Source of the DNA: a virus
Taxonomy: Duplodnaviria; Caudoviricetes
Direction: 5' to 3' (one strand)
Virus record (IMG/VR): IMGVR_UViG_3300035438_000711
Location: 1 to 53,916 of that record
Length of the DNA stretch: 53,916 bases
The first letter of the stretch is position 1. Every line of letters begins with the position of its first letter. The notes under the pieces are model-generated. The model searched no databases. It had not been told where the DNA came from and was given only the letters and a program-made list of their open reading frames with translations. This document shows positions 1 to 26,527 of the stretch, piece after piece. A program made the translations under genes and the position numbers.

Positions 1-127
1 GCCGGAGGTCGCCCGCCGGGACTCTCCGCAACTCTTTAACGCGGTTTCGGATGTTCATGTAGCCAAACTATTGGTCAGGGTAAAAAGGTCAGAGAACGCG
101 GATTTGGGGCTGTGGAAAGGGGGGGGG
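1..127. repeat. Terminal direct repeat, left copy (assembly overlap)
   Basis: 1-127 is identical to 53790-53916; 127 equals a common assembler k-mer size and the repeat lies across the start of a gene. Confidence 0.95.
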
Positions 128-236
128 GTTCGAAAACTTCCGGCGGCGCACGCGCGGGGAACCTTATTGGTTTTACTCGTTGGGGGTTTGGAAAATTGCC
201 CCCCCTACGGGGTCGGCTCGCGTGCGGTTGTACCAG

Positions 237-311
237 CCGCGTCAAATCCCTTTATATATAAGGCCCCCCAACTCGCTCACTTCGGGCCAAAAAGTCCACG
301 ATGATCCGTCA
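237..311. repeat. Partial copy of origin-like multi-block element (blocks A and B)
   Basis: GCCGCGTCAAATCCCTTTATATATA and CAAAAAGTCCACGATGATCCGTCA match 25717-25792 almost exactly. Confidence 0.85.
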
Positions 312-603
312 TGGTCTTGCGGGAGTGGCAGGAGTGGCACAAGCACTGCCCGTTTGCCACCTCGTAGCGGAGGTCGGGCCGCTCGGCTATCGGCACGATA
401 TGGTCAGCGTGGGCCTGCCGCTTCTTGCCGCACACGGTGCCGCATGACCGGCATTGGTACGCGTCCCGCAGCAGCACCTCGCGTCGCCACGCCACGTGCT
501 TGGAGTCGCAGTACCCGCGTGCCGCCGCGTTCGGTCGATAGGATGCCTGCTTGATCTTGTACGTCTTGCGTGGCATCCGCCACATCTCAACGCGTTGCGG
601 CAC
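277..603 (-). CDS. HNH endonuclease (packaging-associated, HK97 gp74-like)
   Basis: VLLRDAYQCRSC...HADHIVP...NGQCLCHSCHSRKT motif; position upstream of the terminase region on the circle; alternative ATG at 576. Confidence 0.9.
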   Translation of the reverse strand: MPQRVEMWRMPRKTYKIKQASYRPNAAARGYCDSKHVAWRREVLLRDAYQCRSCGTVCGKKRQAHADHIVPIAERPDLRYEVANGQCLCHSCHSRKTMTDHRGLFGPK

Positions 604-606
604 GGC

Positions 607-963
607 TCAACTCTTGAGGGTCACGACCGCAGAGACTCCGGTGCCCGCCGCGTTGCCCGCAAGGATTTGCAGGAACGGCACACCGAACACGGCATCGGGC
701 AGATTGTATACGGCACCCACTGCGGTCGATGGAGCCATCGTGATGTCGGCCACGGAGCCGTCGGTGTTGTAGAGCCGTCGATACGTCCCGTCGTCAGCCG
801 ATGCTGCCCACATCTGCAGCGTGGTCACAGCCGTAGCCAACGTGCCAACGTCCACAACTCCACCGGCGAAGTCCTCAACGTAGAGCCGCGTTGCCGAGGC
901 GGTCGATGTCGTGAGCGTGACGTTTACCTGACGCGACCGCCGCCGCATTTTGATTTCAGACAT
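607..963 (-). CDS. Hypothetical protein, possibly virion-associated
   Basis: 118 aa, Thr/Ala/Gly-rich, AGGAG RBS upstream. Confidence 0.7.
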   Translation of the reverse strand: MSEIKMRRRSRQVNVTLTTSTASATRLYVEDFAGGVVDVGTLATAVTTLQMWAASADDGTYRRLYNTDGSVADITMAPSTAVGAVYNLPDAVFGVPFLQILAGNAAGTGVSAVVTLKS

Positions 964-1101
964 TGACCGTCTCCTGTGTGTGGCACGGGTCTGCCCCGCA
1001 ACGTGGCCTATACCAAAAGCCTACAGCCCCGCCGCGATCCCTTGCAGTGGCCGTCTTCTCAATGAAGAGCGCACTGGCCGGATGTCGCCGCGATAGCGCA
1101 A

Positions 1102-1335
1102 CTAGAGATTCTGTACTTTGGACAGGCTGACGTGCCTTACGTCCGCATACCAGTGGCCGAAGCAAAGGTCGATGACTCGGCACTCTGCCACCGTTTCGCC
1201 ATCCTTGCTGCGGTTGATCTCCACAGAACGAAGAACCATCGTTTCGGATGGCGGTCGGCCGTCAAGCATCACATCGACCAGGGCGTCTTTGCCTGCCGCT
1301 GCGATGGCTAGGATTTTCTGTTCGATCTCGCCCAT
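1102..1335 (-). CDS. Hypothetical protein
   Basis: ATG at 1335 preceded by GAAGGGA; ends at junction motif. Confidence 0.65.
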   Translation of the reverse strand: MGEIEQKILAIAAAGKDALVDVMLDGRPPSETMVLRSVEINRSKDGETVAECRVIDLCFGHWYADVRHVSLSKVQNL

Positions 1336-1363
1336 CACGGCCGTCCCTTCGCTCAAGAGCGCA

Positions 1364-1681
1364 CTAGCCCAGCCGGTGCAGCAAGCCGCGAAGCGTGGCG
1401 GCGTCGTTGTCGTAGCCCTCTAGCCTCGCCATTCGCTCTGACTTTTCCACCGCCTTCCGCTCCGCGTCGGTGAGTGCTGGCTGCGGCGATTCCAAGACGC
1501 TCCACGCCACAGGCTTATCTTCTGTCGCGGCGGATAACGTGGCCGATCCTAGCAGACCGCGAAGCCGCTTGATCTCGGCCATCGCATCTTGCAGCGTGTG
1601 CCACAAAGCAACCCTTCCATCGGCATCAAGCAATCGCGTCTCTGCCGAACGAATCGAATCAAGAACGTCCTCAATAATCAT
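1364..1681 (-). CDS. Hypothetical protein
   Basis: 105 aa, purine-rich RBS; ends at junction motif. Confidence 0.75.
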   Translation of the reverse strand: MIIEDVLDSIRSAETRLLDADGRVALWHTLQDAMAEIKRLRGLLGSATLSAATEDKPVAWSVLESPQPALTDAERKAVEKSERMARLEGYDNDAATLRGLLHRLG

Positions 1682-2162
1682 TCTCTTCCCTTTCTATGGC
1701 CGTATGTTTTTCGCTCTAGCGACATTCGGCAGATGATTCTGGACGAAGCGGGCGGCGTCGAAGTCCGCTTGCTCTTCTGGCAGCGTGAAAGTGAGTGTTG
1801 CGACCGGCATATCAGTTCCTACGCAGTTTACGGCGTGGTTTCTCGGACACTACGCAGTTCTTGCCGCCGAATTATAGCGAAGTTACTACGGTTTATCGGT
1901 GACACTACACTCGCCGGGTGTAGCGTGCCGGTTGGGTGTAGCGTCTTCGTTTCCAGATTCCAGATTCCAGAAACCGATAGCCTGTGGCCTATCGGAAAGC
2001 CGCCCCAATCATACCAGCAAACGCATCATTTCCGATGCTTTTCGCATATGGATTGGAAAGAAAACCTATGCACTTTTTCCCATGTGACGAGGTTTCCGCC
2101 GCCGGAAACTGCCCGTGATACTGCTCGGCGATACTAGGCCGGATACTGGTGCAAGAGCGCAC

Positions 2163-2450
2163 TCACTCAGTCCAACCGCTCGGCGGCGTTGAGTGCGGCA
2201 ACGGAAACGTCACAGGCTCGCCGCGTTTTGGCGACCTGTACTTTTCACCTTGCGGCGGCATCGCGGGCAGCGGCATCCAATGCGTGACCGTCTGCGGCGA
2301 GTGCGGCAGGTCGGCGTCTCCCCACCATTCGCCGCTTCGCAACTTCGCAACGGTCATGTAGCCGCCGCACGCAATGAGAACGTCTTGATCGCCTTCCGGC
2401 AGACGCTCTTTGACTGGAATCCACTCTGGGAAGGCGTTAGTCTTCGCCAT
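2163..2450 (-). CDS. DUF551-family phage protein
   Basis: WIPVKERLPE...VLI...VTHWMPLP signature; AGGAG RBS before ATG 2450. Confidence 0.85.
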   Translation of the reverse strand: MAKTNAFPEWIPVKERLPEGDQDVLIACGGYMTVAKLRSGEWWGDADLPHSPQTVTHWMPLPAMPPQGEKYRSPKRGEPVTFPLPHSTPPSGWTE

Positions 2451-2523
2451 AGCCTTGTCTCCTATCTCAACTAGGGGGCGGGTTAGAACCGGCGGCGGGC
2501 TGCAATCCCGTCGCCGGTTCGCA

Positions 2524-2552
2524 TTTATACGTCGCCCAGACAGGGGAGGCAA
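2524..2552 (-). promoter_or_regulatory. Sigma70-like promoter for the DUF551 gene
   Basis: TTGCCT-N17-TATAAA followed by a leader hairpin GAACCGGCG...CGCCGGTTC. Confidence 0.55.
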
Positions 2553-2630
2553 GTCTAGGGTTTTGTCGTTCACTTTTGCCCCGCAATCGCACCCCAAGCC
2601 GACGCGGCACGATCTAAGGTGAAGAGCGCA

Positions 2631-2840
2631 CTACCGGGACGCCCAAGTCTCGCCAGCGACAGAAGTGCGATCATCAACGCGGACCAGCAGGCCAGAGTCG
2701 ATTGCGTCTTGGGCTGCTTTTGAGATCACTTGCCCGACTTTTTCTTCGCCAAGATACAACCGCCAGCCGCCAAAGTTACCGCGACAGAGTTGCTTCCCAG
2801 CCTTAAGTTTCGCAATCACCACATTTGCGCTCTTGATCAT
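2631..2840 (-). CDS. Hypothetical protein
   Basis: AGGAGG RBS before ATG 2840; ends at junction motif. Confidence 0.75.
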   Translation of the reverse strand: MIKSANVVIAKLKAGKQLCRGNFGGWRLYLGEEKVGQVISKAAQDAIDSGLLVRVDDRTSVAGETWASR

Positions 2841-2861
2841 GGCTCGTCCTCCTGTGTCCGT

Positions 2862-2890
2862 ATTGTATACAGTCGGATACAGGCTGTCCA
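2862..2890 (-). promoter_or_regulatory. Sigma70-like promoter with GTATCCGAC in its spacer
   Basis: TGGACA-N17-TACAAT. Confidence 0.65.
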
Positions 2891-2895
2891 GCCCG

Positions 2896-3084
2896 TTAAC
2901 TTTCCTTGGGTTTTGGCCGGAATTTCTCGGCATCGGCCCGCCTGACGAAGTTTTGCCCGTCGATGGCAATGGCGGGGAATCGCCCGCTGGCGATCAGCCG
3001 GTTGATGTAGGCCCGCGTGACGCCTGCGAGGCTGGCTGCGGTGCCGATGCGAACGTATTCGTCTGGGTCGATCTTCTTTGCCAT
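2896..3084 (-). CDS. Small excisionase/MerR-like helix-turn-helix DNA-binding protein
   Basis: YVRIGTAASLAGVTRAYINRLIASGRFPA pattern. Confidence 0.8.
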   Translation of the reverse strand: MAKKIDPDEYVRIGTAASLAGVTRAYINRLIASGRFPAIAIDGQNFVRRADAEKFRPKPKES

Positions 3085-3090
3085 GCCCCG

Positions 3091-3118
3091 ATTGTAGCCG
3101 GTCGGATACGGTAAGCAA
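3091..3118 (-). promoter_or_regulatory. Probable leaderless promoter for the HTH gene
   Basis: TTGCTT-N16-TACAAT-N6-ATG; spacer contains GTATCCGAC. Confidence 0.5.
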
Positions 3119-3152
3119 TCGGCCCGACGCTACATAGTTGGAATAGCGCAGT

Positions 3153-3467
3153 TCAGACCGCCGGGTCCGCAGGCAGCAACGCCACCGCGTCTGCCCATGG
3201 GATCACTGCCACGTTGGGCAGCAGCACCGCCTGATCCGCTGCGGCCCACATGCCCGCCAGCAGCCCACCCGGCATGACTTCAGTGAGGATGTCGCCGCAC
3301 AGCATCAGCCGCCCATCGGTCAGAGCGCGAGGCACGGGGACGCAGTTGGGCGAGCCATGCTCCGCGTGGAGTTGTGCGAGGCGGCCAGCCAGGGCGGGCG
3401 TGAAGACCAGGGCCAGCCCCTTGGCGTCGGCGTCACTGATCGGGAGCGTGATGTCGGAAAGGGTCAT
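3153..3467 (-). CDS. Hypothetical protein, possible tail-fibre partner
   Basis: ATGA overlap with upstream fibre-like gene. Confidence 0.75.
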   Translation of the reverse strand: MTLSDITLPISDADAKGLALVFTPALAGRLAQLHAEHGSPNCVPVPRALTDGRLMLCGDILTEVMPGGLLAGMWAAADQAVLLPNVAVIPWADAVALLPADPAV

Positions 3468-5146
3468 TTTCTGCCCAGCGCTCTAACGAGCGTATCCCAG
3501 ATGTTGTAATAGGCGAGCGACTCAGACTCAGAGAGATTGTCGCCGATCGTGTAGCCGCCTAGTCGTGCGTTTGAGTGGGAGGAGAAGGTGCCGCCCCCTT
3601 GAGCCTCAGCAAAGACAGAGATTCCCGTTGTTACGGTTCCAGAGTTACGGCCAACTCCAGCAATGCCAGACAATGTTCCGTTTGTGTAGCAAACGGCGGC
3701 TCCCCCCGTTTCAGCCTGCGCCCCTAACACAAAATCGCCAGCCGCGTGTACAGAAGTGCCACCAGAGCCTCCCGCACCAGACGCTTCGTTGTAGGCCGCT
3801 AGGGCATAATTTGTAACGGGGTTTACATTTGTCAGACGAAACAAACCTGAAAAGCCTGTGGCTCCAGTGCCGCCAAGGTAGGCGCGGAACGTAGCCGTTG
3901 GCAGCGTATGCACGAAGCAACCAATGTGCCTCGCACTAGAGAAGTTCAGCGGCAGACCTGTCCGCAGCCTCTTGGTGCTGCCGTTTCCGATCAGCCCGCT
4001 CGTTGCAACGTAGTCGCCGCTCACGAAGTTGTCGTTGGTGTCGGTGGCGTTGCCGTACTGCGTGCCGCCTGACGATGGCCCGCGATACAAGGGAACGAGC
4101 GCCGCCGAAAGGTTCTCGCCTGCCATCGGGTTCGCTCGCCACAAGAGCGACCGCAGGCCCGCCGATTCGATTGAGTTGCAGAACGTGTTGACCGCCGCAG
4201 CCGTCGCGGTGCTCACGGTGCCGCCGTTGCCGTAGACGCTGTCGATCCAGAGTTTTGCTTCGGCATTCGTAACGGCCGAGAAGGCGGGGTCGCTGCTTGC
4301 GCGGTCGCGGAACAGTGCGGTCTGGAACGCCTGCATGGCCGCATCGTATGCAGAAATGTCACTGGAGTTGAGCCCGGCACCAATAGAATATCCCGCGAGC
4401 GTTTGGTTGCTAAACAGGTTTGCAGTGTAGGCGTTTGCACCCGTACTCTGGTCATTGCGGGCAAACACGGCAAATGGTATCGACGTTCCTGAAACAGACG
4501 CGCTCGCCGCATTGGCGGCCGAAAGCGTAGTCCTGCGGAACGACACGAGATCAGTGTCGTTTGTGCGTGTTACACCTAAAAGCGAGTCATGCGTACCCGG
4601 CACGGCAACACTGCCCGTAGTGCCTCCCAGAACATTTCCGCCAGCGCCAAATTCCCATGTGTTTCCGAGTGCCGTAGACCTCGCGCTCAGGAGTACTCCG
4701 CTGCTTGTGCTGGTGCGTTTGTAGACAGACAGATGCGAGCGCACGTTGCCGCCAGTGATCCACGCAGACGATTGCAAGCCGGTTTGCAAATACTTGCTGC
4801 TGCCGTTACCGACCAGCCCGCCACTCGCCCCCGTCTCAACGTAGTCACCAGCCACGAAGTTGACGTTCGTATCCGTCGTGTTCCCGAACTGCGTCCCGCC
4901 CAGCGACGGCCCTCTGAACAGCGGCACCAGTGCGGCCGAAAGGCCCGTGCCACAGACCAAGTTGAGGCGGTAGAAGCGGTCGCGGATGCCCGCCGTCACA
5001 ATCGACTTGCAGAAGGTATCGACAGCCTTCATCGTCGTGGCTGAGACGGTGCCGCCGTTGGCAACCACGCGGGCCTGCCAATCGCGGGCGTCTAGGCCGT
5101 AGCCGCTGGATGCTCGCGGGCGAAGCAGTCTCGGACTCATTGCCAT
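3464..5146 (-). CDS. Tail-fibre/receptor-binding-like protein with two tandem homologous domains
   Basis: 560 aa from MAMSPRLLRPR; Gly/Thr/Ser/Asn-rich; NGGTVS...AVxTFCxSI...LSAALVPLxRGPS.GGTQxGN.TDTN occurs twice; function inferred. Confidence 0.65.
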   Translation of the reverse strand: MAMSPRLLRPRASSGYGLDARDWQARVVANGGTVSATTMKAVDTFCKSIVTAGIRDRFYRLNLVCGTGLSAALVPLFRGPSLGGTQFGNTTDTNVNFVAGDYVETGASGGLVGNGSSKYLQTGLQSSAWITGGNVRSHLSVYKRTSTSSGVLLSARSTALGNTWEFGAGGNVLGGTTGSVAVPGTHDSLLGVTRTNDTDLVSFRRTTLSAANAASASVSGTSIPFAVFARNDQSTGANAYTANLFSNQTLAGYSIGAGLNSSDISAYDAAMQAFQTALFRDRASSDPAFSAVTNAEAKLWIDSVYGNGGTVSTATAAAVNTFCNSIESAGLRSLLWRANPMAGENLSAALVPLYRGPSSGGTQYGNATDTNDNFVSGDYVATSGLIGNGSTKRLRTGLPLNFSSARHIGCFVHTLPTATFRAYLGGTGATGFSGLFRLTNVNPVTNYALAAYNEASGAGGSGGTSVHAAGDFVLGAQAETGGAAVCYTNGTLSGIAGVGRNSGTVTTGISVFAEAQGGGTFSSHSNARLGGYTIGDNLSESESLAYYNIWDTLVRALGRK

Positions 5147-5180
5147 GTGAATTGCGCTCTTGGGGTGATATAGCGTCGCG

Positions 5181-5471
5181 CTAGTTTTGTGCGTCTGTCC
5201 TAGCAGGCCGTGCAAGTACCTGCTGGATTTCACGCTGGCCCTTGGCGAGTTCCTGCAAAGTCTCGGACTGCTGCTCCATGGTGTGCTGCGTTGACTCCAG
5301 AAACTCGACGTGACTCTTGACCACCGGCTCGACAACGCTGCTGTGGATCGCAATGGCCGCTTCGCGTCCGCAGTAGAGCAACACAGCCAGTAGCACGACC
5401 GGAACGCCGAACCGTTCAGCGATCCGCAAAAGGGTGTCGATGGTGCCCTGCTTCAGTTCGTCAGTTGTCAT
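5181..5471 (-). CDS. Holin-like membrane protein
   Basis: Single hydrophobic segment FGVPVVLLAVLLY followed by a coiled coil. Confidence 0.55.
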   Translation of the reverse strand: MTTDELKQGTIDTLLRIAERFGVPVVLLAVLLYCGREAAIAIHSSVVEPVVKSHVEFLESTQHTMEQQSETLQELAKGQREIQQVLARPARTDAQN

Positions 5472-5827
5472 CGCGTCAACTCCAGTTGCATCGTAAGCAA
5501 GAAGACCCGGTTACTTGCACGCTCCATCCACCAATCAAGCAGGATTTTGATGATCGCACTGACCATGATTTGCAGGATGAATGCCCAGATGAATCCGTAT
5601 TCCTTCGGCTCCTTGCCGCTGACCAGTTGGTGCCCACGCTTCACTGACGACTCGATGCCAAGGCATACGATCCGCCGCTGCTCCTCGGTCAATGCGTACT
5701 TGAGGTAATCCCCCTGCCAGTTCTCGACCGTCAACTGCACGAGGTCGTCGAGCGTGCCGCGTCCGATAACGTGCTTCCCTAGCGGACAACGCTTCCAGCA
5801 ATACTGCTGCAGTTCGGAAAGGTTCAT
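5468..5827 (-). CDS. Hypothetical membrane protein
   Basis: Start MNLSEL overlaps upstream stop; hydrophobic YGFIWAFILQIMVSAIIKILL. Confidence 0.7.
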   Translation of the reverse strand: MNLSELQQYCWKRCPLGKHVIGRGTLDDLVQLTVENWQGDYLKYALTEEQRRIVCLGIESSVKRGHQLVSGKEPKEYGFIWAFILQIMVSAIIKILLDWWMERASNRVFLLTMQLELTR

Positions 5828-6096
5828 TGCTTGCACCGCCCATCGGTGCAAGCCCTGCCGGTGCCTTTGCAAACGGGGCACACCGTAACGATGCGTCCAT
5901 CTCCGAGCCTGCCCGTGCCGTCGCAGTTGGAACACTTGTCGGACTTCGGAGCGGGTGCCATCTCCTGCCGTAACTTCACGACCATGCGTGCCGTCTCGCA
6001 CGCAAGGTCGGCGGTGATGTCGGGGCGGTCTTGCTGCACGGTGCAACTCTGTGCGGTGAGCAGGAACACGCCGGTTATGAGAGCAGCGGATTTCAC
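5824..6096 (-). CDS. Secreted/lipoprotein-like protein with DnaJ-type zinc finger
   Basis: GTG overlapping the protease stop; signal-like N-terminus ending AQSC; CSNCDGTG and CPVCKGTG motifs. Confidence 0.7.
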   Translation of the reverse strand: MKSAALITGVFLLTAQSCTVQQDRPDITADLACETARMVVKLRQEMAPAPKSDKCSNCDGTGRLGDGRIVTVCPVCKGTGRACTDGRCKQ

Positions 6097-7004
6097 AGCA
6101 CGCCTCCCGTCCAATCGGACAGCACGCGGGGCGGGAACCCGGCGTAGCCAGACAAGGCAAACGTGTCGTCGCCTTGGATCATGCGGGTGAAGTCTTTCGC
6201 CTTCACCCAGCCTGCCGACCGCTGGAACTGTGGCGGCAGATTCGTATCGTACGTTCCCGAGTAGCAGTCGCCCCAACTGTTCACGACGAGGATCGCTGGC
6301 TCTGGATTCCACCGCACCCCAGCGGCCATCTGGCAATGTGCCCAGCCGCCCATCGGCGTCATGTAGCCGTCCCGCAGCGTCATGGAAAATCCCATTCCAG
6401 AACACACCGCAATCGGGTAGCCGTTCTGGATCGCCTTGGCTGCCTCTTCAAAATTCCGCACCAACGTCACCGACGAAACCTTGTGCCGCGCCGCCGCTGC
6501 TTCAAGGGAATCGGGCACGCCGTCGCGTCCCCATTCCTTCTCACGGCTCCCGCTGTTGTCGTTGAACGTCTGCCCGCCGTAGTCGATGCCGTAGTGCAAC
6601 GTGCCGTACTTCGTCACGGCCTTCGCTGCCGCGCCGCCGTATGATCCGTCGCCGCCGAGGTTCCTGCCGCCGCGAACTTCCACACGGGAAAATCCGTAGA
6701 CGCTCGCCTCCAAAACCCGCCCGCCATAACTCTCGCTCTCGTTCCGCAGCAGCACATCGCACGCGGCGAGAATGTCGCAAGACAAACTCCACCCCCACCC
6801 CACGCACGAGCCTATTTTTTGGGCACCACGCTTCCAATCGGGGGCAACCCTGAGCAAATACTGCCCAAGGAATACGTCCTTCGATTCGTCAAGCACCAAG
6901 TCTGGCCCGGCCTGTGCCAGCGTAGGCCGGGGCAGCGTTGCAAGGAACGCGTCGGTGCCATCGCGGTCGGGCGTGTAGCCCATCAGAGGAATGAAGTCGG
7001 CCAC
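6093..7004 (-). CDS. Papain-like (C1) cysteine protease
   Basis: QKIGSCVG (catalytic Cys), AHCQ (His), VVNSWG (Asn). Confidence 0.85.
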   Translation of the reverse strand: MADFIPLMGYTPDRDGTDAFLATLPRPTLAQAGPDLVLDESKDVFLGQYLLRVAPDWKRGAQKIGSCVGWGWSLSCDILAACDVLLRNESESYGGRVLEASVYGFSRVEVRGGRNLGGDGSYGGAAAKAVTKYGTLHYGIDYGGQTFNDNSGSREKEWGRDGVPDSLEAAAARHKVSSVTLVRNFEEAAKAIQNGYPIAVCSGMGFSMTLRDGYMTPMGGWAHCQMAAGVRWNPEPAILVVNSWGDCYSGTYDTNLPPQFQRSAGWVKAKDFTRMIQGDDTFALSGYAGFPPRVLSDWTGGVL

Positions 7005-7007
7005 GGG

Positions 7008-7481
7008 CTACCCTCCGTTGCCGATGCCAGCCCATGCAATCGCACGGCAAGCGTCCGCGTATTGCTTCCGCAAGTCCGTTGTCACGGGCACCACCTCGAT
7101 GCCGACAACACCAGCCATCGCTTTCTCAACCGCCTCACGCAGCCCCACATACTTGCCCGGTTGGTTGCCAGCCAGACGCCGCCACGCAATGTCGAGCGAC
7201 AGCACGGTGAAGCCTCGCAGGCTCCGCGTGTCGGTGAACACCACCTCGGTGCCCTCCGGTGCCGCCACGACAATCGCCGCCCGCTCCCAGACCGCAGCCC
7301 ACACGGCACGGTCAACTTCGCTGGCTGGCCTCAAGGCTGCGGCAACGTCGGCTACTTTTGTTTTCATCTGCTCACTCGGGGCGTCAACTGAAAAGCCGGG
7401 GACGGCACGCGGCACCGACGGCACGCCGAACGCGGCCACGTAGCCAAGCACCGCCGCAATCGTGAGACGCTGCCAGTTCAT
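7008..7481 (-). CDS. Hypothetical exported or membrane-anchored protein
   Basis: MNWQRLTIAAVLGYVAAFG hydrophobic N-terminus; coupled start. Confidence 0.7.
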   Translation of the reverse strand: MNWQRLTIAAVLGYVAAFGVPSVPRAVPGFSVDAPSEQMKTKVADVAAALRPASEVDRAVWAAVWERAAIVVAAPEGTEVVFTDTRSLRGFTVLSLDIAWRRLAGNQPGKYVGLREAVEKAMAGVVGIEVVPVTTDLRKQYADACRAIAWAGIGNGG

Positions 7482-7756
7482 TTCTTTGCCTTCGCGTTGC
7501 CAAGCATCACGTCGATCAACTGCTGGCACAGGGCCACGCCTTCAGTGCACCCCGCAGCCTTCAGCCGCGTGGCAAGGTCAAGCACGATGTGCAAATCCTT
7601 GCCGGTCACGGCTGCGGTCTTTTCACCTGCGGTTTCCACCGCACGGTTTTTCCACGCGGCTTTGACTTTTGCAGCCAAGGCGGCAATCGCGGGGCCAGCG
7701 ACGACACCCACTGCCGCCACAAGGGCGACGACACGTATGATGGCATCGGTGTTCAC
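7478..7756 (-). CDS. Hypothetical membrane protein
   Basis: GTG overlapping upstream stop; N-terminal transmembrane segment. Confidence 0.7.
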   Translation of the reverse strand: MNTDAIIRVVALVAAVGVVAGPAIAALAAKVKAAWKNRAVETAGEKTAAVTGKDLHIVLDLATRLKAAGCTEGVALCQQLIDVMLGNAKAKK

Positions 7757-8058
7757 TTTGCCCCCTCGGCTTGCATGAGGCACCACCGCACAAGCGACTC
7801 GCCCTGCGGTGTCTTGAAGATGTCGGCAAGCAGCCGCACCAACTGGTCGTCAGCCTGTGTGTTGGTCTTCGATGCCAGCCACTCGGCGGCATCGCTCACG
7901 ACAAGACCCTTTTTGTATGGGTCGATCTCGTTCACGAATCGCTGGCCGTAGCCGATCAGCGGCGACCATGCCTGCAGCAACGCAATCTGCTGCCAGATAG
8001 AAAGCGACGCCCCGTACTTGGCGTACTCGTCTGCCGTGCCTTGGTAGTTTGGTGCCAT
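7753..8058 (-). CDS. Hypothetical protein
   Basis: AAGGAG RBS, 101 aa. Confidence 0.75.
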   Translation of the reverse strand: MAPNYQGTADEYAKYGASLSIWQQIALLQAWSPLIGYGQRFVNEIDPYKKGLVVSDAAEWLASKTNTQADDQLVRLLADIFKTPQGESLVRWCLMQAEGAK

Positions 8059-16570: not shown

Positions 16571-16824
16571 CAATCCCCTTCTTATAATTGGCCCTCGGAA
16601 TAACTCCGACGACGGTAAAAAGTCCGCGGTGATCCGTAACATGGGCACTCTGACCCACCGTTTGACGACGATTCGAGAAAACACCCTCTTGCACAAAAGT
16701 TTTCGCGGCGGTTTTCGCGGCACGTTTCACCGCGTAAAAACAAGTACAGATCGCACATTGCCGGGGAAACCGAGCGGCTCCGAACAACTTTTTAGGCATG
16801 ATAAAAATCCCCCTAGAGTAGGGA
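16571..16824. other. Putative replication origin (multi-block element, full copy)
   Basis: Non-coding gap between primase and helicase genes; TTTTCGCGG repeats; homologous to 25717-25944. Confidence 0.6.
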
Positions 16825-18555
16825 TCAGCCGTCGGCCCCCTGCGGCGGCGTGGCATCCATCGTCGCAATCTCCTCCAGCACCGCGAACTCCCGCTGTGTC
16901 CACACCACGTACGATTTGCGGGCACCGCCGAGGTGCCTGTGTTCCGTGTGCCTGAAATCCTTCTCGCCCTCCAGACGGGCTAATAGACGCCTTTTGAGGG
17001 CAAGCCTCTCGCCGTCGTTGACGCGGTGCTGCCGCTCGATGTCCTCCCAGACTTTGCCCCAGCCGAACCAGAGCGTGCCGTCCTGCCGCCACGCCGCCCG
17101 CCCGGTCGGGTCGGGCAGATCATCGTCCGACGGCTGGGAGGCCTGCGCCAGCCGGTCATAGAGCCATGAGGCCAGAAGCACGTAACGCAGGCTACTTGCT
17201 CCCGGCCATTCGTGTTCCACGTTGTCGAGAAGTTTTGCCTTCACTCCGTCGGCGGTTCGGGTCTTGGCGGTCGCGTCGCCCTGCTTGTTCTTGACCTTGT
17301 AGCCGCCGTCCCAAATCCGCTTCCAATCGCCCGGCTTTTTGTCGAGCATCACTACGCCGGTCGCACTCAGCACCGCCGCCGCCACCTTCGTGGCACTGCG
17401 GTACTGGTCAACCGAAAGCGAGATGTTGCCCGTGCCGTTCGATGTCCACTGCTTCCACGCCGGAACGTGCAGCCGGTATTCCAGCGGGTCGGAGTGCACG
17501 ACCGTCAGCCGCCACTCGCCCGGCCCCCACTCAGGGTCAGCGTCTGGCACGATGGGGGTGAACGCCAGCCCTGACGCCGTAAACAAACGCACCCAGCCTT
17601 GCCCAGCCTCGGGCTTGATCGGCTTGAGTTTCGCGCACTCCCTCGCACTGGTCGCCTCGGCGTGAGCAATCGCCACGGCTTGATCCATGCCAGCCGACCG
17701 GGTCTTGCGAACGTACCCAATCGCCGACCGAAAGATCGCCACCACTTCGTCGTCGGCCATCGGCGGTTTGCACTGCACCGTGTTGAGCATCCGAATCTTC
17801 GCCAGCAAATCTTGCTGCTCGGTTTGGTCGTCAAGGTCTGGCCCCGAACGGAACGCCTCGCGGACGGCGAACCGATACACCTCCTCGTTTCTGCCGCCCT
17901 CCTTCACCGGTTCGTGTAGCAACGCCCGCGCGGGCTTTCGCCCCGTGCCGATCCGCTGCCCCGTGCCGTCGTCGTTCCAAAGTAAGTTCACCAACTTCTC
18001 AGGCAGCGGCTGCAACTCCACGTCGTCGGGACTCATTCCCGGCACCCACTCGTAGATTTTTCCAGTGTGATGAACCGACGGTGGAATGACCGACTGCGCC
18101 GCCGCGCCGCCGTTGCCGATCCGCACTTCGATGCCGTTGACCTTCCGCACCGCCGTAGCGGGCAATCCTTCGTCCCACCGGAACAGCCGATGCGGCCCCC
18201 GGCCTGCCGTGTAAGTCGGCGTCCAGATTTCGCCAAGGCCGAGCGCGGCCCACGCCGCTTTCGCATCGTCACCGTCAAGTTCAACGTCTACGACACCTGA
18301 TGCCGGGCCAAGCAGCAAGCCGATGTTCACCGGCGTGCCCGCCTCAAACCACGACAGCACCGTCTCCTCGTCATCGGTGGCACTCAGGTGCCACGCTTCG
18401 CCCTGCGGATGCTTCCCCGGCGTGCCGCAGTCCCGGCCCTTCCAGCAAGTGCAAACCCCCGGCGACGGCGAACCGTACAGCCGAACAATCTTCCAGCCGC
18501 GTGCGGCGTATGTCGCCGCGAGCGCGGCGACCCCATGATGCGTAGCCATATCCAT
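16825..18555 (-). CDS. Bifunctional DNA primase-polymerase with PriCT domain
   Basis: CTC...C..PGKHP, NIGLLLG, VVDVELD, GRGPH, IPPSVH, EGGRN, QCKPPM. Confidence 0.9.
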   Translation of the reverse strand: MDMATHHGVAALAATYAARGWKIVRLYGSPSPGVCTCWKGRDCGTPGKHPQGEAWHLSATDDEETVLSWFEAGTPVNIGLLLGPASGVVDVELDGDDAKAAWAALGLGEIWTPTYTAGRGPHRLFRWDEGLPATAVRKVNGIEVRIGNGGAAAQSVIPPSVHHTGKIYEWVPGMSPDDVELQPLPEKLVNLLWNDDGTGQRIGTGRKPARALLHEPVKEGGRNEEVYRFAVREAFRSGPDLDDQTEQQDLLAKIRMLNTVQCKPPMADDEVVAIFRSAIGYVRKTRSAGMDQAVAIAHAEATSARECAKLKPIKPEAGQGWVRLFTASGLAFTPIVPDADPEWGPGEWRLTVVHSDPLEYRLHVPAWKQWTSNGTGNISLSVDQYRSATKVAAAVLSATGVVMLDKKPGDWKRIWDGGYKVKNKQGDATAKTRTADGVKAKLLDNVEHEWPGASSLRYVLLASWLYDRLAQASQPSDDDLPDPTGRAAWRQDGTLWFGWGKVWEDIERQHRVNDGERLALKRRLLARLEGEKDFRHTEHRHLGGARKSYVVWTQREFAVLEEIATMDATPPQGADG

Positions 18556-19458: not shown

Positions 19459-19908
19459 TCAACCCAACGTGCGATGCGACAGCCGCATTTCACGAAACTC
19501 AGTCAACAACCCTGCGAACGGAGTGCCATCCGCCAACGCGGCGTCGCCCTCCGCAGCCCGCTGCTCCATCAGCCACGCCTTGAGTGTGCTGGTGTTCACA
19601 GCAATCAAGTCTTCCAGCCCCGACGCCTTCGCCGCTTCGACCACGGCTTCCCGGTTCACGGTGGGAACCGATACGAAAAAAAACTCGCGGACAAACCAAG
19701 ACTTCCCCGCCGCACGCACACCGTCGAGGCCCGACACAGCCAGCCGCTCGACGGCCAACTGCTCGGCATCCTTGAGCGACCTGCTAACCCGCGCCGCCTC
19801 CGTTGCCAGCCGGTCTTTCTCGCCCTGCAACTCGGCCACACGCTCCAGCAGTTTTGCCAACTGCTGGCTGTCTTCCATCTGCCCGGCAATCTCCAGTTCA
19901 ATGCTCAT
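19459..19908 (-). CDS. Hypothetical coiled-coil replication-module protein
   Basis: 149 aa; VNTSTLKAW motif; coupled to helicase. Confidence 0.7.
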   Translation of the reverse strand: MSIELEIAGQMEDSQQLAKLLERVAELQGEKDRLATEAARVSRSLKDAEQLAVERLAVSGLDGVRAAGKSWFVREFFFVSVPTVNREAVVEAAKASGLEDLIAVNTSTLKAWLMEQRAAEGDAALADGTPFAGLLTEFREMRLSHRTLG

Positions 19909-21293
19909 GCAACACTCTCCGTTCTCGGCGAAAGATTTTTCAGCACCGCTTCGACAACGCTTCGACGCTCACGAAGTGCCGCGTACACTTGCTCGTCCAC
20001 CGTGCCGGTCGCTACCAAGTGGTAGTACCGCACGCATCGCGTCTGCCCCGGTCGCCGTAGCCGGGCAAGACTCTGCTCGTAGTCGCCGAGGCTGTAGCCA
20101 AGGCTGTAGTAGAAGGCGTACGCCGCGCGGCTCAGGTCGATGCCCACGCCGCCGGATTGAATCTGCACGCCAAGGATCGTGGCGTCACCGGCCTGCCACC
20201 GCTCAAGGTCTTTCCGTTCGCCCGAAACCTCCGCGTACTCGCGGCCCAACGTGCGGGCCGCAGCCTGCACGTCGTCAAGGTCGGAGCGAAACCGGCAGAA
20301 CACGACCACCGGCTCGGTCACGGGCAAGTCGTCGAGACGATCCTCAAGGATGGCCCGCTTCGTAGGCATCCCGTCGATCAACACCGTGCCCGATTCCTCG
20401 GTGCGGGCATAGCCGCCGGTCGCCTGTTGCAACCGCAGCAGTTTGGTCAGCGCATTGCTGACCGTGACCGTGCCCGCTTCGATTGCGGCAGTCATTTCCT
20501 TCTCCAGCGACCGGTAGAACTTCAGCGTTGCCGGTGACAGCGGCACCGGGATCGTGTCGTGAATCGCGTCGGGCAAGTCGAGCACTTCGTCGGCGGTGAC
20601 CCGCCATGAGTGTGCGTCGAGTTTCGCTGCGAGTTCGTCTTGGTTCCTCCACTTCTTGACCTTGCTGGGGAACCGCACGTCGCACTCGGCATATCGTGCC
20701 CGCATCCGCGTGTAAGACGAACCGAACACGTTGCCGTCAAGGAATCGGAACTGCCCATAAAGGTCGAGCGGGGAGTGCGGCATCGGCGTGCCAGTGAGGC
20801 ACAGCCGCTTCGCGTGCGGATGCTTCGCCGCCAGCCGTGCCAGCCACCGGCTAGCCTTGCCGCCCGGTGACTTGATACGGTGCGACTCGTCCAGCACAAT
20901 CGCCGCCCACTTCGTGCCCTCAATCAGTTTGCCCAACTCGCCACGCCACACCGAGTCGTAATTCACAACGACGATCAGCGTCTGGTTCCCCGCCGTCTGC
21001 AAAGCCTGCTGGAGTTTCTCGGCCCGCTGCCTCGACGCCCCGTTGTGAATCAGCACCGTGGCAAGGCTCTTGCCAATCGCCATCAGCCCAAGGGCCAAGA
21101 GCGCACAAAAGGTTTTGCCGCACCCCATGTCGAGGGCAAGCATCGACGCGTGCCGGATCGCGGCCCACGCCGCCGCCTCGCTCTGATGCCGCCACGGCTT
21201 GAAGTCGCCGCGTGCCGCACCCGCCACCACCTTCGCCCACGCCGGGGCGACGGCCTGCGGACACACGACCAAAACGTGCGGTCGCATTTTCAT
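19905..21293 (-). CDS. SNF2-like superfamily 2 helicase
   Basis: DMGCGKT, DESH, LTGTP, VVFCRF, GGVGIDL, QSLARLRRPGQ; start may be 21320. Confidence 0.92.
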   Translation of the reverse strand: MKMRPHVLVVCPQAVAPAWAKVVAGAARGDFKPWRHQSEAAAWAAIRHASMLALDMGCGKTFCALLALGLMAIGKSLATVLIHNGASRQRAEKLQQALQTAGNQTLIVVVNYDSVWRGELGKLIEGTKWAAIVLDESHRIKSPGGKASRWLARLAAKHPHAKRLCLTGTPMPHSPLDLYGQFRFLDGNVFGSSYTRMRARYAECDVRFPSKVKKWRNQDELAAKLDAHSWRVTADEVLDLPDAIHDTIPVPLSPATLKFYRSLEKEMTAAIEAGTVTVSNALTKLLRLQQATGGYARTEESGTVLIDGMPTKRAILEDRLDDLPVTEPVVVFCRFRSDLDDVQAAARTLGREYAEVSGERKDLERWQAGDATILGVQIQSGGVGIDLSRAAYAFYYSLGYSLGDYEQSLARLRRPGQTRCVRYYHLVATGTVDEQVYAALRERRSVVEAVLKNLSPRTESVA

Positions 21294-21306
21294 GCGATCA
21301 AAACTG

Positions 21307-21546
21307 TCATGCCATGCCATTCTCAAGTACCTCCTGCTCGATTTCGTCCCAATGTGTTTCGATCCATGCCGCGATCCACTCGTCATCCGGTGTCGCAGAA
21401 ACAAACTCTGCCGACCTCGGCCAGCCGGGGTGCCCGTCGCCGTTGGAGTCCCGGTAGCAGGCTGGCTCCGCTTCGTTGATCGTGAAGCGAACCAGCACCT
21501 TCACCGGCTCCCCGTCCGCGTCGGGCACCTCGACTGCCGCGATCAT
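21307..21546 (-). CDS. Hypothetical acidic protein
   Basis: 79 aa, GGAGG RBS, coupled. Confidence 0.7.
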   Translation of the reverse strand: MIAAVEVPDADGEPVKVLVRFTINEAEPACYRDSNGDGHPGWPRSAEFVSATPDDEWIAAWIETHWDEIEQEVLENGMA

Positions 21547-25716: not shown

Positions 25717-25944
25717 GCCGCGTCAAATCCCTTTATATATATGGGCCTGCTTCAACACGGACGGGGGGCAAAAAGTCCGCGATGATCCGTCAACGCAAAA
25801 AAAGTATCGGCCCAAAGTATTTTCGCGGGCGTTTTCGCGGGCGTCTAACTGCTTGCACCGCAAAGCGTTAGCCATCGCTGCCGCGAAAACCGGGACGCGG
25901 CGAACAACTTTTTGCCCTAGTGAAAAATCCCCATAGAGTAGGGA
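25717..25944. repeat. Second full copy of origin-like multi-block element
   Basis: Six blocks collinear with 16571-16824. Confidence 0.85.
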
Positions 25945-25951
25945 ACAGGGG

Positions 25952-26194
25952 TCAGGCCCGCTTGCGGCCCTTCGTCTTCGCGGCGGCGATCCAATCGGGA
26001 TTGCCAACCGTGTCGTTGATCGCCGACCGCAACGCGGTCAGGTCAGCCGCCGCCAACGCGGCCAGCCGCTTGCCGCCGTGGACGAACACGCCGCGATTCA
26101 CTCGCCGCGCTGCTCGCGTCACGGTCTTGACGCAGCAGCCAAGTTTCTCCGCTGCTTCCGCACTTGTGAAATACACCACAGGTTTACTCTCCAT
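25952..26194 (-). CDS. Small HTH DNA-binding protein
   Basis: FTSAEAAEKLGCCVKTVTRAAR; GAGGTG RBS. Confidence 0.75.
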   Translation of the reverse strand: MESKPVVYFTSAEAAEKLGCCVKTVTRAARRVNRGVFVHGGKRLAALAAADLTALRSAINDTVGNPDWIAAAKTKGRKRA

Positions 26195-26465: not shown

Positions 26466-26500
26466 TGTTCCGATTCCCGTGGTATCGAGACAAACAGACG

Positions 26501-26527
26501 GCCACCCCTCCACGTCGGAGGGGTGGC
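26501..26527 (-). terminator. GC hairpin just downstream of the tRNA-like attP core
   Basis: GCCACCCCTCC-N5-GGAGGGGTGGC. Confidence 0.6.

Follow-up and report, generated by a model that had tools for sequence, protein, structure and literature searches.

Breaks of homology at gene ends are common among phages generally. The described sequences that we liken to the short repeats reported here, as recombination linkers, are the PeSLs of phage T4 and the "boundary sequences" of lambdoid phages. In integrons, the recombination sites (attC) are about 57-141 bp long. Among sites with other roles, the stoperators of Cluster A mycobacteriophages are 13-bp asymmetric sites aligned with transcription, with 20-30 of them across a genome (PMC6550527). 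The start-associated sequences of Cluster K mycobacteriophages are one-directional repeats at the position of the ribosome-binding site (PMC3203893). In the shufflon sfx sites of Rci, a 7-bp spacer separates a variable from a conserved arm, each of 12 bp (PMC11852207). The elements that we describe consist of 9 + 7 + 9 nt, compared with 12 + 7 + 12 for sfx, and both have one variable and one conserved arm. All of them lie within one 4-kb region, unlike the genome-wide stoperators.

A bipartite element between the fibre gene and fam2

The window is the whole 53,916-nt stretch of DNA that was analysed, which a 127-nt terminal repeat closes into a circular map. On this map, an HNH gene is the final gene ahead of a non-coding stretch (1-276). 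Beyond it, at 52634-53847, lie two genes of ParB type, followed at 50519-51046 by the small terminase gene; these ParB-like genes, the portal gene, and the terminase gene are all on the same strand. Genes are open reading frames filtered by GC3, not the output of a gene finder. The features that matter here are:

5153-5177, plus strand: element f, the one copy that is inverted, TGCGCTCTT-GGGGTGA-TATAGCGTC, with the stop of a 96-aa gene (5181) on one side and the ATG of the fibre gene (5146) on the other
3464-5146, minus strand: tail-fibre-like gene, 560 aa, matching phrog_17104 (function unknown)
3153-3467, minus strand: fam1, 104 aa, occupying the place of a tail-fibre assembly chaperone and anchoring the array on its upstream side; 42 relatives found
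3126-3150, minus strand: element a, TGCGCTATT-CCAACTA-TGTAGCGTC, 2 nt past the fam1 stop
2896-3084, minus strand: cassette gene for a 62-aa excisionase-like HTH protein, whose ATG has a -10 of its own (TACAAT) 6 nt upstream
2631-2840, minus strand: cassette gene, 69 aa, with its own promoter TGGACA-17-TACAAT (2890-2862)
2606-2630, minus strand: element b, TGCGCTCTT-CACCTTA-GATCGTGCC, directly past the TAG of the 69-aa gene
2163-2450, minus strand: cassette gene for a 95-aa DUF551 protein (Pfam, E = 2e-10), with its own promoter-like TTGCCT-17-TATAAA
2137-2161, minus strand: element e, TGCGCTCTT-GCACCAG-TATCCGGCC, 1 nt past the DUF551 TGA
1694-2136, minus strand: conserved regulatory-looking region (repeats, hairpin, TATAAT), then a 38-aa remnant of the 68-aa gene F2
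1364-1681, minus strand: cassette gene, 105 aa, no family match
1339-1363, minus strand: element d, TGCGCTCTT-GAGCGAA-GGGACGGCC, with its R-box (see below) at the ribosome-binding-site position of the next gene (ATG 1335)
1102-1335, minus strand: cassette gene, 77 aa
1076-1100, minus strand: element g, TGCGCTATC-GCGGCGA-CATCCGGCC, 1 nt past the TAG of the 77-aa gene
1049-1073, minus strand: element c, TGCGCTCTT-CATTGAG-AAGACGGCC
607-963, minus strand: fam2, 118 aa, downstream anchor of the array, with a conserved leader; 23 relatives found
277-603, minus strand: HNH endonuclease (Pfam HNH match)
26465-27469, plus strand: tyrosine integrase (PF00589, 31.7 bits against a cut-off of 27.1, plus a SAM-like N-terminal domain), likely starting at the ATG at 26613

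The sequence of fam1 itself gives no family match. In two related loci (L017 and L078), a different protein, with a Pfam Phage_tail_APC match, lies directly before element b, which is the place of fam1 elsewhere. We found 12 relatives of the fibre gene, most of them matching only residues 1-398: in the BLAST blocks, the N-terminal part is common to relatives and the C-terminal part is mosaic. The 62-aa gene has weak HTH_17 and excisionase matches below the cut-off. Neither this gene nor the 105-aa gene has a homologue among the 84 loci that we fetched. The sequence-only reading held that several units carry their own promoter, and this was borne out: the promoter of the 69-aa gene passed a strict scan, and two more could be read by eye (TTGCTT-16-TACAAT before the HTH gene and the one before DUF551). 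No hairpin terminators were found in the array.

The starting point of that reading was a junction motif, AAGAGCGCACT, present four times in 1.6 kb. Exact copies do lie at 1065, 1355, 2153, and 2622 on the plus strand, all of them AGTGCGCTCTT on the gene (minus) strand; 100 dinucleotide-preserving shuffles gave a mean of 0.04 copies and a maximum of 2, and none had four or more. Loose matches (up to two mismatches) were not enriched across the genome (15, versus 18.7 expected), so the signal is in the exact, clustered copies. Both reported variants are real: the one at 3142 has 2 mismatches, and the one at 1092 departs from the motif at 4 of 11 positions, being recognised only as a full bipartite element. 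As had also been read, five of the six direct copies abut a stop codon (on the gene strand, TAG-TGCGCTCTT at 1355 and 2622, TGA-G-TGCGCTCTT at 2153, TGA-AC-TGCGCTATT at 3142, and TAG-T-TGCGCTATC at 1092); the sixth, at 1065, is directly 3' of the 1092 element. The sole inverted copy, TGCGCTCTT at 5153-5161 on the plus strand, is 6 nt from the fibre ATG. A near-copy at 21097, with one mismatch, lies within a helicase ORF (19905-21404) without the rest of the element and is most likely due to chance. The inverted AGTGCG partners proposed at 2192 and 2664 are present, but they add no structure beyond chance, as folding of 101 nt around each of the six junctions gave z-scores of -0.97 to +2.29.

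The motif had been taken for the site itself. It is a repeated junction word, but only the conserved head, the first 9-11 nt, of a one-directional bipartite element of about 25 nt. On the gene strand, this element comprises a stop codon, the core TGCGCTCTT, a 7-nt spacer, and a 9-nt R-box that ends in G-Y-C and is often purine-rich, resembling a ribosome-binding site. The stop codon is 0-4 nt ahead of the core or overlaps it as TGA-CGCT. The window has seven elements, six direct (3150-1049) and the inverted one before the fibre gene; of the nine bipartite matches in the whole genome, seven fall in 1049-5177.

From 84 related loci (779 kb), we collected 57 distinct elements with six spacer types. 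The core consensus is (T/G)(G/A)CGCT(C/A)(T/C)(T/C/A). R-box position 7 is G in all 57 and position 9 is C in 50, although neither position was used to select elements. The spacer is specific to the element's position in the array: it is invariant within a slot and differs between slots, whereas identity in the adjoining R-box is just 56%. For 36 of 56 elements, an ORF of 35 or more codons has its stop within -8 to +3 nt of the core, versus 8.6% of 5,000 random positions; of the 20 elements without such a stop, 10 directly follow another element or a 27-nt hairpin (in L007 and L016). Core and R-box show no covariation across the 57 elements.

Fixed order and exchanged cassettes in related lake phages

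Across 30 loci from related uncultured lake phages, the element order a, b, e, d, g/c is kept while the genes between differ. All 23 loci with at least two elements are consistent with a<b<e<d<g<c, although these counts are not of independent events, since many of the loci are pieces of genomes that are closely related. The elements are confined to one subclade; the fam2 leader is also conserved in relatives that lack them, and gene F2 is present in 21 element-bearing loci. In the window, the a-b slot holds the HTH and 69-aa genes and the b-e slot holds DUF551. Other slots are empty: L035 has a-b-e with nothing between, L007 has a, then the 27-nt hairpin, then b-e, and element c of the window starts 27 nt after element g starts, which leaves no room for a gene. 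Abutting elements are 26-27 nt apart from start to start (33 nt in L073). Three of the 11 multi-member cassette families occur in more than one slot. For instance, F14 (150 aa) is in the a-b slot of L006 and the d-g slot of L078, with its right boundary at the core, and F18 is in the b-e slot of L016 and before d in L014.

Homology also breaks at the elements. In BLAST comparisons of the window with L006, L007, L016, and L017, homology ends or resumes at 3126, 3128, 3135, 2166, 2163, 2159, and 2138. In particular, for L006, L007, and L016 it stops at 3126-3135 (element a) and resumes at 2166, 2159, and 2163, respectively (element e). Across 1000-3200, 7 of about 12 breaks are within 10 nt of an element edge; breaks away from elements are at 2558, 1872, 1810, and 1749, as well as inside the fibre gene. 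Synteny among the window, L006, and L007 extends over about 4 kb on the upstream side of the fibre gene, and element f is kept before this gene in relatives; homology of the window to L005, L006, and L008 begins at 5177-5186, the outer edge of this element. Contigs of coexisting variants from two lake runs diverge at 3126 and 3128, in element a. Comparison of contigs from 4 runs with the region showed no joints that would represent recombination intermediates or products, but contigs cannot show rare forms.

One transfer is recent: the DUF551 cassettes of the window and L017 are 93.8% identical over 421 nt, versus 77% for the HNH genes. Its break points are inside or adjoining elements b and e, and the right boundary is between the spacer and the R-box of e. 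The left boundaries of F14 and DUF551 are outside the spacer, 20-45 nt past the R-box. More broadly, both flanks are at most 50% identical in 197 of 257 pairs of same-type elements. Variation in the core follows the flank upstream (r = 0.20) and that in the R-box the flank downstream (r = 0.24), with no linkage of core to R-box (r = 0.00), as expected from crossovers between the two.

The proposal of a cassette-like array is thus supported. It would have been contradicted by fixed gene content, breaks away from the motif, or uniform spread; instead, content varies among relatives, homology breaks at motif-bearing elements, and the motif is clustered.

What the elements might be

The sequence-only reading had also suggested gene capture of an integron kind, in which an IntI-type integrase would capture promoterless cassettes via attC-like sites. 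Cassette genes in an array that end right at a repeated site do recall an integron. However, the integrase has no integron-integrase match, just weak Xer-like NCBIfam matches far below the cut-off; the elements, at 25 nt, are several times shorter than attC and form no stable fold; and the cassettes have their own promoters. No RYYYAAC...GTTRRRY pair occurs in 1-5600 on either strand, in agreement with the claim that the motif is distinct from standard integron sites. In addition, insertion of a circle at one site would leave same-type elements on both sides, and the inserts are not flanked in this way, which counts against capture. We therefore reject the integron, which has next to no chance of being correct. 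It is also improbable, if less extremely so, that the elements are tyrosine-recombinase core sites akin to sfx, with a conserved arm, a 7-bp overlap, and a degenerate arm, such that slot-differing spacers let only like slots of two genomes recombine. The geometry, the invariance of spacers within a type, the unlinked core and R-box (which spacer crossovers would also give), and the right boundary of the DUF551 transfer are all consistent with this. So is the phage's Xer-like integrase, in which we detected no arm-binding domain, and integrase-family genes are present in five of five array-bearing relatives. But they are also present in four of five element-less relatives (two above the Pfam cut-off), 23 kb separate the integrase from the array, and the integrase gene has no element-like site next to it. 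The arms are poor inverted repeats, with pairing possible in more than 60% of elements at only 3 of 9 positions (3-23, 8-18, and 2-24), and they do not covary. Cassettes have moved between slots with different spacers, two left boundaries fall outside the spacer, and no serine recombinase was found in the phage. Nothing ties the elements to the phage integrase, and the earlier suggestion that the integrase or the neighbouring HNH enzyme acts on them is not supported.

The main role of the elements might instead be in expression, as signals to which a phage or host protein binds. They could, for example, act as an orientation-dependent roadblock, in the manner of stoperators, that shields each cassette and its promoter; conservation alone would then make them hot spots of recombination, like T4 PeSLs. 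We consider this unlikely, although more probable than the other alternatives. In its favour, the sites combine a short, asymmetric, bipartite form with invariant positions (CGCT ... G.C), six of the seven window copies are oriented with gene transcription, they lie at stop codons with cassette promoters next, the array lacks hairpin terminators that could insulate instead, and restriction to one subclade fits a specificity shared with one regulator. The clustering in one region, in contrast to the genome-wide stoperators, argues against it, and we found no candidate binding protein. The distance from element to next promoter ranges from 7 to more than 250 nt, three abutting elements with empty slots would be odd for insulators, and a binding site does not account for spacers that are invariant within slots and differ between them. 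Translation offers another reading, for which we see little chance: the core's pyrimidine-rich CUCUU would pair with the purine-rich R-box, as the ribosome-binding site of the next gene, and be opened by a ribosome at the stop codon, a form of translational coupling. The stop codon does adjoin the core, in tight junctions (element d of the window; L016, L026, L049, and L069) the R-box resembles GAGAGAG or GGGAGAG and an ATG comes 2-13 nt later, predicted folds at junctions c and d include small CUCUU/AAGAG-type hairpins, and the position is comparable to that of start-associated sequences. However, junction folds are not more stable than shuffled sequence, positions 7 and 19 can pair in just 22 of 57 elements, many elements precede another element or a promoter and long leader rather than a start codon, and neither the TGCG in the core nor the slot-specific spacers are accounted for. 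Least probable apart from the integron is a host-directed signal, either a boxA/nut-like Nus-loading site or a Chi-like word towards the nearby genome end. The core contains CGCTCTT, which is the core of lambda boxA. Chi is active in the orientation of the strand whose 3' end is at the genome end, and the direct copies are all on the strand with its 3' end at the presumed genome end, given a putative cos position. But the rRNA-leader boxA is of TGATCTTTGACAA or TCATTGACAA type in all three Planctomycetota genomes examined, unlike the core. Also, the core is not over-represented (5 occurrences, versus 14 of a reversed control word) in the 3.5-Mb genome of a candidate host, which was assigned from one 3.3-kb contig in a metagenome-assembled genome.

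Probable linkers for cassette exchange

With somewhat better than even confidence, we view the elements as conserved linkers where recombination between related phages exchanges promoter-plus-gene cassettes. Crossovers would occur inside the elements, and general or short-homology recombination, not a dedicated enzyme, probably acts there; the elements may require no other primary function. Stretches of 9-25 nt of identity are at best at the lower limit for efficient RecA-type recombination, and the phage has no recognisable annealing protein of the RecT, ERF, or Rad52 type. Three features are left unexplained if the elements are nothing but linkers: the single core common to all of them, the constancy of R-box position 7, and the invariance of the spacer per slot beside so variable an R-box.

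In a clade of temperate lake siphophages, the elements divide up the accessory genes that lie between the tail-fibre/chaperone module and the fam2-HNH end, and the order f, a, b, e, d, g, c stays constant while the DNA between is replaced, inserted, or lost. As linkers, short islands of identity, they would allow the left flank from one genome to be joined to the right flank from another, with co-infecting relatives or resident prophages as the partners. Less often, the shared core may also let unlike slots recombine, or give rise to deletions. No gene would be broken when the fibre/chaperone module, or an entire cassette of promoter and gene, passes from one phage to another.

Gene order, samples, and repeats of the window

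The window (53,916 nt) is one complete virus record from IMG/VR. It closes on a 127-nt terminal repeat, and nearly all of its genes lie on the minus strand.

Main genes of the window, in gene order
51 to 35 kb, minus strand: TerS, TerL, portal, protease/capsid, and tape-measure genes, in that order
after the structural genes, minus-strand order: replication genes (helicases, primase, clamp)
26465-27469 (26.5 kb), strand opposite to most genes: tyrosine integrase, 334 aa
after the integrase and before the fibre-like gene, minus-strand order: unknown genes
3464-5146: fibre-like gene, followed by a run of small genes
277-603: HNH endonuclease, last in gene order

The stretch is present in 24 lake-water metagenome runs, and no RNA run is listed among those that contain it. 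The sole hint of the host is an 84% match of TerL to a 3.3-kb contig that was binned in a Planctomycetota MAG, so the assignment to Planctomycetota is weak; this MAG contains no 16S gene. A blastn search of positions 1-8000 against a collection of phages from GenBank gave no match, a tRNA scan found none, and a search of positions 1-6000 against Rfam gave only a sub-threshold hit to PtaRNA1.

Several other features of the record are worth describing. Two neighbouring genes at 52634-53847 are paralogues, encoding proteins of 192 and 212 aa with a ParB-like domain at the N terminus; on the circular map, they are between the HNH gene with its non-coding stretch and the small terminase gene, from which about 1.6 kb of other ORFs separates them. 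Tandem 18-nt repeats, with 7 and 5 overlapping reference copies in the repeat listing (families D1 and D2), are found at 33349-33511 and 32197-32308, inside long minus-strand ORFs (32457-33566 for the former). A second repeat family has three composite intergenic copies: at 236-311, past the HNH gene and close to the probable end of the genome; at 16612-16639 plus 16759-16839, in the helicase/primase gap; and at 25717-25792 plus 25879-25959, beside the HTH/integrase region. Their common blocks are 28 to 81 nt long and 75 to 94% identical (families D4, D8, and D19), and they are candidate promoters/operators or origin-like sites.

A bipartite element at gene junctions

The sequence AAGAGCGCACT occurs exactly four times (1065, 1355, 2153, and 2622), always on the same strand, against an expectation of 0.04 copies; none of 100 shuffled sequences reached four. 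The sequence-only reading, which took the region for an integron-like gene-capture array, noted six copies including variants, most of them abutting a stop codon. On the gene strand, a stop codon does lie 0 to 2 nt before five of the six, and the sixth follows another copy. The inverted copy that it placed ahead of the fibre gene's start is real. The inverted partners that it saw inside genes also exist, but RNA folds of the junctions show no structure there beyond chance. Loose matches to the motif are not enriched across the genome.

Using the fibre and HNH proteins and the proteins that anchor the array upstream (fam1, 3153-3467) and downstream (fam2, 607-963) as queries, we fetched 84 related loci (779 kb). 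In these loci, the motif is just the head of a longer unit: on the gene strand, a core (TGCGCTCTT) is followed by a 7-nt spacer of few kinds and by a 9-nt R-box. We refer to the units as elements, to the space between consecutive elements as a slot, and to the gene or genes in a slot as a cassette.

Spacers of the direct element types
a: CCAACTA
b: CACCTTA
e: GCACCAG
d: GAGCGAA
g: GCGGCGA
c: CATTGAG

R-box position 7 is G in all 57 of the distinct elements, and position 9 is C in 50 of them; neither position was used as a search criterion. Where elements abut, their starts are 26 to 27 nt apart, which defines the length of the unit. The core begins with TGCGCT or GACGCT, followed by CTT, ACT, ATC, or ATA, and a T just before the GACGCT form gives a TGA stop. 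The stop of a real-looking ORF lies within -8 to +3 nt of the core for 36 of 56 elements, versus 8.6% of random positions. Ten of the other 20 elements are directly behind another element or (in two loci) behind a 27-nt hairpin.

Six of the window's elements are direct (on the gene strand) and one, f (5153-5177), is inverted; together, f and a flank the fibre gene and its likely chaperone. Across the genome, there are nine matches to the bipartite pattern, and seven of these are within 1049-5177. The motif is clustered rather than uniformly spread, in line with the sequence-only reading, and the two outlying matches are at the level of chance (5.7 expected per genome). Among the relatives, the core is on the gene strand in 43 cases and on the opposite strand in 18, of which 14 are element f.

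Additional spacers are GGACATC (locus L066, 1720) and GAAATCA (L070, 1402, and L014, about 9540). Because these units have the same core and the same G-Y-C end, the family exceeds the six catalogued slot types. In L050 (802), the fam1 stop, TGA-CGCT, is joined straight to GAAGACGGTC, as if an element had been stripped of its spacer and of the last part of its core.

In complete records of more remote relatives, the motif is absent (two records) or present in one to two copies (three records), and no element follows the fam1 stop in distant relatives. A de novo count of 9-mers across all loci, which was swamped by GC-rich codon repeats, did not identify an alternative junction word. In the rest of the genome, the spacers have no partner sequences beyond the level of chance. 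The leader before fam2 (window 964-1047, and L066-L088) has the form CTGCAAG ... GGCCACGTTGCGGG ... GACCCGTGCCAC ... AGGAG; since it is kept in distant relatives without elements, it may be a structured 5' leader or attenuator.

Slot contents, homology breaks, and transferred cassettes

The order of the elements fits a<b<e<d<g<c in all 23 loci that contain at least two of them. The sequence-only reading implied that the array should vary among relatives and that synteny should break at the motif, and both expectations were borne out: the contents of the slots differ, with some slots empty, and 7 of about 12 homology breaks in 1000-3200 are within 10 nt of the edge of an element.

Contents of the slots in the window and four relatives
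L035: a-b-e, slots empty
L007: a, 27-nt hairpin, b-e
L016: 66-aa gene between b and e
L006: 150-aa gene in a-b; 105-aa gene in b-e
window: HTH gene and 69-aa gene in a-b; DUF551 gene in b-e; two orphan genes around d

The 27-nt filler (L007, 9897-9931; L016, 450-484) is the sole content of the a-b slot in these two phages and includes a perfect 7-bp hairpin, GTTTCGC GAATT GCGAAAC.

The window is syntenic with L006 and L007 over the 4 kb that lie upstream of the fibre gene. BLAST homology to relatives stops or resumes at 3126-3135 (the end of a), at 2159-2166 (the start of e), and at 2138 (the end of e); on the left side, it begins at 5177-5186, which is the outer edge of f. Contigs from coexisting variants in two lake runs depart from the window's sequence at 3126 and 3128. 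Joints are not confined to the elements, however, since homology also breaks at 2558, 1872, 1810, and 1749 and within the fibre gene. When we compared 257 pairs of elements of the same type, both flanks were at most 50% identical (the random level) in 197 pairs. Core variants show a weak association with the flank upstream, as do R-box variants with the one downstream; between core and R-box, there is no linkage. This pattern is what would be expected from crossovers inside the element, between the core and the R-box.

Three of the 11 cassette families that were found in more than one phage use more than one slot. A family of 150-aa proteins (F14) is in the a-b slot of L006 and the d-g slot of L078; on the right, the alignment of the two runs precisely up to the core, and on the left it begins 25 to 45 nt past the R-box. 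Another family (F18) is in the b-e slot of L016 and before d in L014, and its right boundary is again at the core. DUF551 genes occur in three contexts. The DUF551 cassettes of the window and L017 are 93.8% identical, from the promoter through the e spacer, while the HNH genes of the same two phages are just 77% identical, which implies a recent transfer that was bounded by elements.

Most cassette genes do not match any family. Those that do encode DUF551, an N6/N4 DNA methylase, an excisionase-like HTH protein, and a tail-fibre assembly chaperone; the chaperone cassette is directly before element b, in the position that fam1 holds in other relatives. In several cassettes, a predicted sigma-70-like promoter comes directly after the preceding element. 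The earlier claim that units carry their own promoters agrees with one hit from a scan (TGGACA-17-TACAAT, ahead of the 69-aa gene) and with -10/-35-like pairs that we read by eye before the HTH and DUF551 genes, all of which are predictions. Planctomycetota rRNA promoters are of the same kind (TTGACN-17-TAnnAT).

A regulatory-looking region on the minus strand (1811-2136) is 78 to 92% identical in L006, L007, L016, and L035. It contains three copies of AGTATC about 12 nt apart, a perfect hairpin and then TTTCT, three copies of CTGGAAT, CTACAC/GTGTAG repeats, and TATAAT. It is upstream of a gene for a 68-aa protein (F2), which in the window is shortened to 38 aa (1694-1810).

Proposed recombination linkers and other readings of the elements

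The comparative pattern suggests, at somewhat better than even odds in our judgment, that the elements are recombination linkers, that is, islands of identity at which left and right flanks are re-joined. Re-joining at such islands would allow whole genes to be exchanged cleanly. The likeliest agent is general or short-homology recombination, because no dedicated enzyme is tied to the sites. In particular, the window's integrase, which the sequence-only reading had put forward as a possible acting enzyme, shows no link to them: it is not of the integron type, it is 23 kb away, it has no element-like site beside it, and integrase-family genes occur alike in relatives with and without elements. 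Also, the inserts lack the two like flanking elements that insertion of a circle would give. Resolvase families are absent from the window. Two results weaken the linker reading: the window contains no recognisable members of the RecT, ERF, or Rad52 annealing families, and we saw no recombination joints or products in the assembled contigs of four sequencing runs (X4, X5, X9, and X12), which miss rare forms.

Integron cassette arrays are made of single-gene units with attC sites and promoterless cassettes, and they have an IntI integrase and a common promoter. The array resembles them in that single-gene units each end in a repeated site just past the stop codon. However, integron-type gene capture failed on every defining feature that we tested. 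The NCBIfam model for integron integrases does not match the window's integrase, and R''/R' box pairs of attC (RYYYAAC ... GTTRRRY), which in a true attC belong to a long imperfect palindrome, are absent from both strands of 1-5600 at distances of 40 to 150 nt. The elements lack attC structure (they are 25 nt and fold no better than shuffles), the inserts are not surrounded by a duplicated site, and the cassettes are not promoterless, as candidate promoters precede the 69-aa, HTH, and DUF551 genes.

Among known systems, those that behave most similarly are PeSLs, from T4-type phages, and the boundary sequences that have been proposed for lambdoid phages. In the sections of Arbiol et al. 2010 that describe them (PMC2839356), PeSLs are units of about 100 bp in which experiments showed a sigma-70 promoter as well as a stem-loop terminator; PeSL mini-circles were detected, and recombination between PeSLs is held to insert, delete, and replace genes. 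As described there, PeSLs are like the elements in being short, conserved intergenic units that start at the upstream stop codon, lie mostly within a hyperplastic region of small non-essential genes, and flank genes that differ between close relatives. Unlike those PeSLs, the elements are 25 nt, without a promoter or stable stem-loop (neither was called on any of the six direct elements); they come in an ordered set of types, each with the spacer of its slot, and belong to a temperate siphophage. The assembled contigs of four runs, in which rare forms are missed, showed no circles. Boundary sequences, or linkers (Susskind and Botstein 1978 and Clark et al. 2001, as cited in PMC3029335), are short conserved junction words proposed for homologous recombination between differing phages, and the elements likewise have the same short sequence with different neighbours in different phages. 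According to PMC3029335, boundary sequences cannot be found at most mosaic boundaries, whereas the elements are related linkers with a common core, at nearly every junction of one region and in fixed order. The new features are that the element is so small, that it is bound to a stop codon, that it has neither promoter nor terminator parts, and that its spacers, each particular to one slot, form a fixed series.

If the elements were linkers and nothing else, this would leave unexplained why they have a core in common, why the G in the R-box never varies, and why spacers are invariant within a slot when the adjacent R-box is much more variable. Two rival readings therefore stay alive. In one, which we consider unlikely, the elements are a protein-binding expression signal, like stoperators or PeSLs, whose conservation would also make them sites of recombination. 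The site is asymmetric and aligned with transcription (6 of 7 elements in the window are on the gene strand), but a signal of the stoperator type does not fit with sites that are confined to one region (seven of nine matches in 1049-5177). As described in part of PMC6550527, the stoperators of Cluster A mycobacteriophages are 13-bp sites, 20 to 30 per genome, that were shown to bind the immunity repressor; they too are short, asymmetric, mostly in one orientation to transcription, and often at gene ends, but the elements are seven bipartite 25-nt sites in 4 kb. The SAS/ESAS of Cluster K mycobacteriophages are one-directional intergenic repeats of unknown function, beside varied gene families in the non-structural part of the genome; in the section of PMC3203893 that describes them, they include the Shine-Dalgarno core and precede start codons by 3 to 7 bp, whereas the conserved part of the element goes with the stop codon at the end of the gene upstream. 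A translational-coupling hairpin fared worse, with no support from folding or covariation (none was found for dyads or hairpins).

In the other rival reading, which we regard as improbable, the elements are tyrosine-recombinase sites with heterospecific spacers. The 9+7+9 geometry with one conserved arm recalls the sfx sites of the R64 shufflon, which Rci recombines (PMC11852207); in both, a 7-bp spacer separates a conserved arm from a variable one. As described in part of that source, sfx sites share a common spacer, are inverted in the 3' region of one gene, adjoin rci, and support only inversion (PMC11852207), whereas the elements have varying spacers, are direct in six of seven cases, and are 23 kb from the only recombinase gene. 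That core and R-box are unlinked, and that the DUF551 transfer ends on the right as a crossover in the spacer would, both fit a recombinase. On the other hand, the complementarity of the arms is weak and without covariation, cassettes occupy slots with different spacers, and the left ends of transfers are 20 to 45 nt beyond the R-box. A specific form of this idea, which seems to us quite improbable, is natural recombinase-mediated cassette exchange by the phage's Xer-like integrase or a host tyrosine recombinase. The recombinase would recognise the conserved arm through binding and would cleave at both edges of the 7-bp spacer. Since spacers are slot-specific, only like slots of two co-infecting genomes would recombine, so that exchanges of accessory genes and of the host-range module would stay in register and would delete nothing within a genome. 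If true, this would account for the slot-invariant spacers, the invariant G-Y-C in the second arm, and the inverted f/a pair around the fibre module. The integrase (26465-27469) is the only recombinase that we found, with Xer-like matches in NCBIfam of 23 to 38 bits (cut-offs, 220 to 335), and the window contains no serine recombinase. Comparing the integrase region to 401 Planctomycetota genomes gave only marginal matches of 27 to 45 nt in 7 of them, so no attB was found.

Other candidates were rejected. Folds of the six junctions are no better than shuffles (z from -0.97 to +2.29), and a scan for consensus terminators found 6 when 5.5 were expected by chance, so we dropped the terminator or hairpin reading; one terminator-like hairpin on the plus strand overlaps the R-box end of the inverted f, at chance frequency. 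For boxA/nut, all three Planctomycetota rRNA leaders have a boxA of the TGATCTTTGACAA or TCATTGACAA type, which is unlike the core (the assignment of the host is weak), and a host-wide word or Chi-like site failed its test. We presume that three further likenesses are due to chance: a possible complementarity of 7 nt of the core to the 1100 region of 16S rRNA, a resemblance to the XerC arm of dif, and a resemblance between the R-box of a and the ops element.

That phage mosaics originate at short linkers is an old idea with few examples at the level of sequence. Here, one family of 25-nt linkers is found in fixed order at nearly every joint of one accessory region, and it also brackets the tail-fibre module. 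The family spans dozens of uncultured lake phages, among which one can see slots that are empty and a cassette that was transferred recently. As linkers, the elements would be defined "addresses" for the entry of accessory genes, including a DNA methylase, DUF551, small HTH proteins, and many orphans. The core offers a simple word for finding such regions in metagenomes, and the constraint on the spacer is a concrete, testable puzzle.
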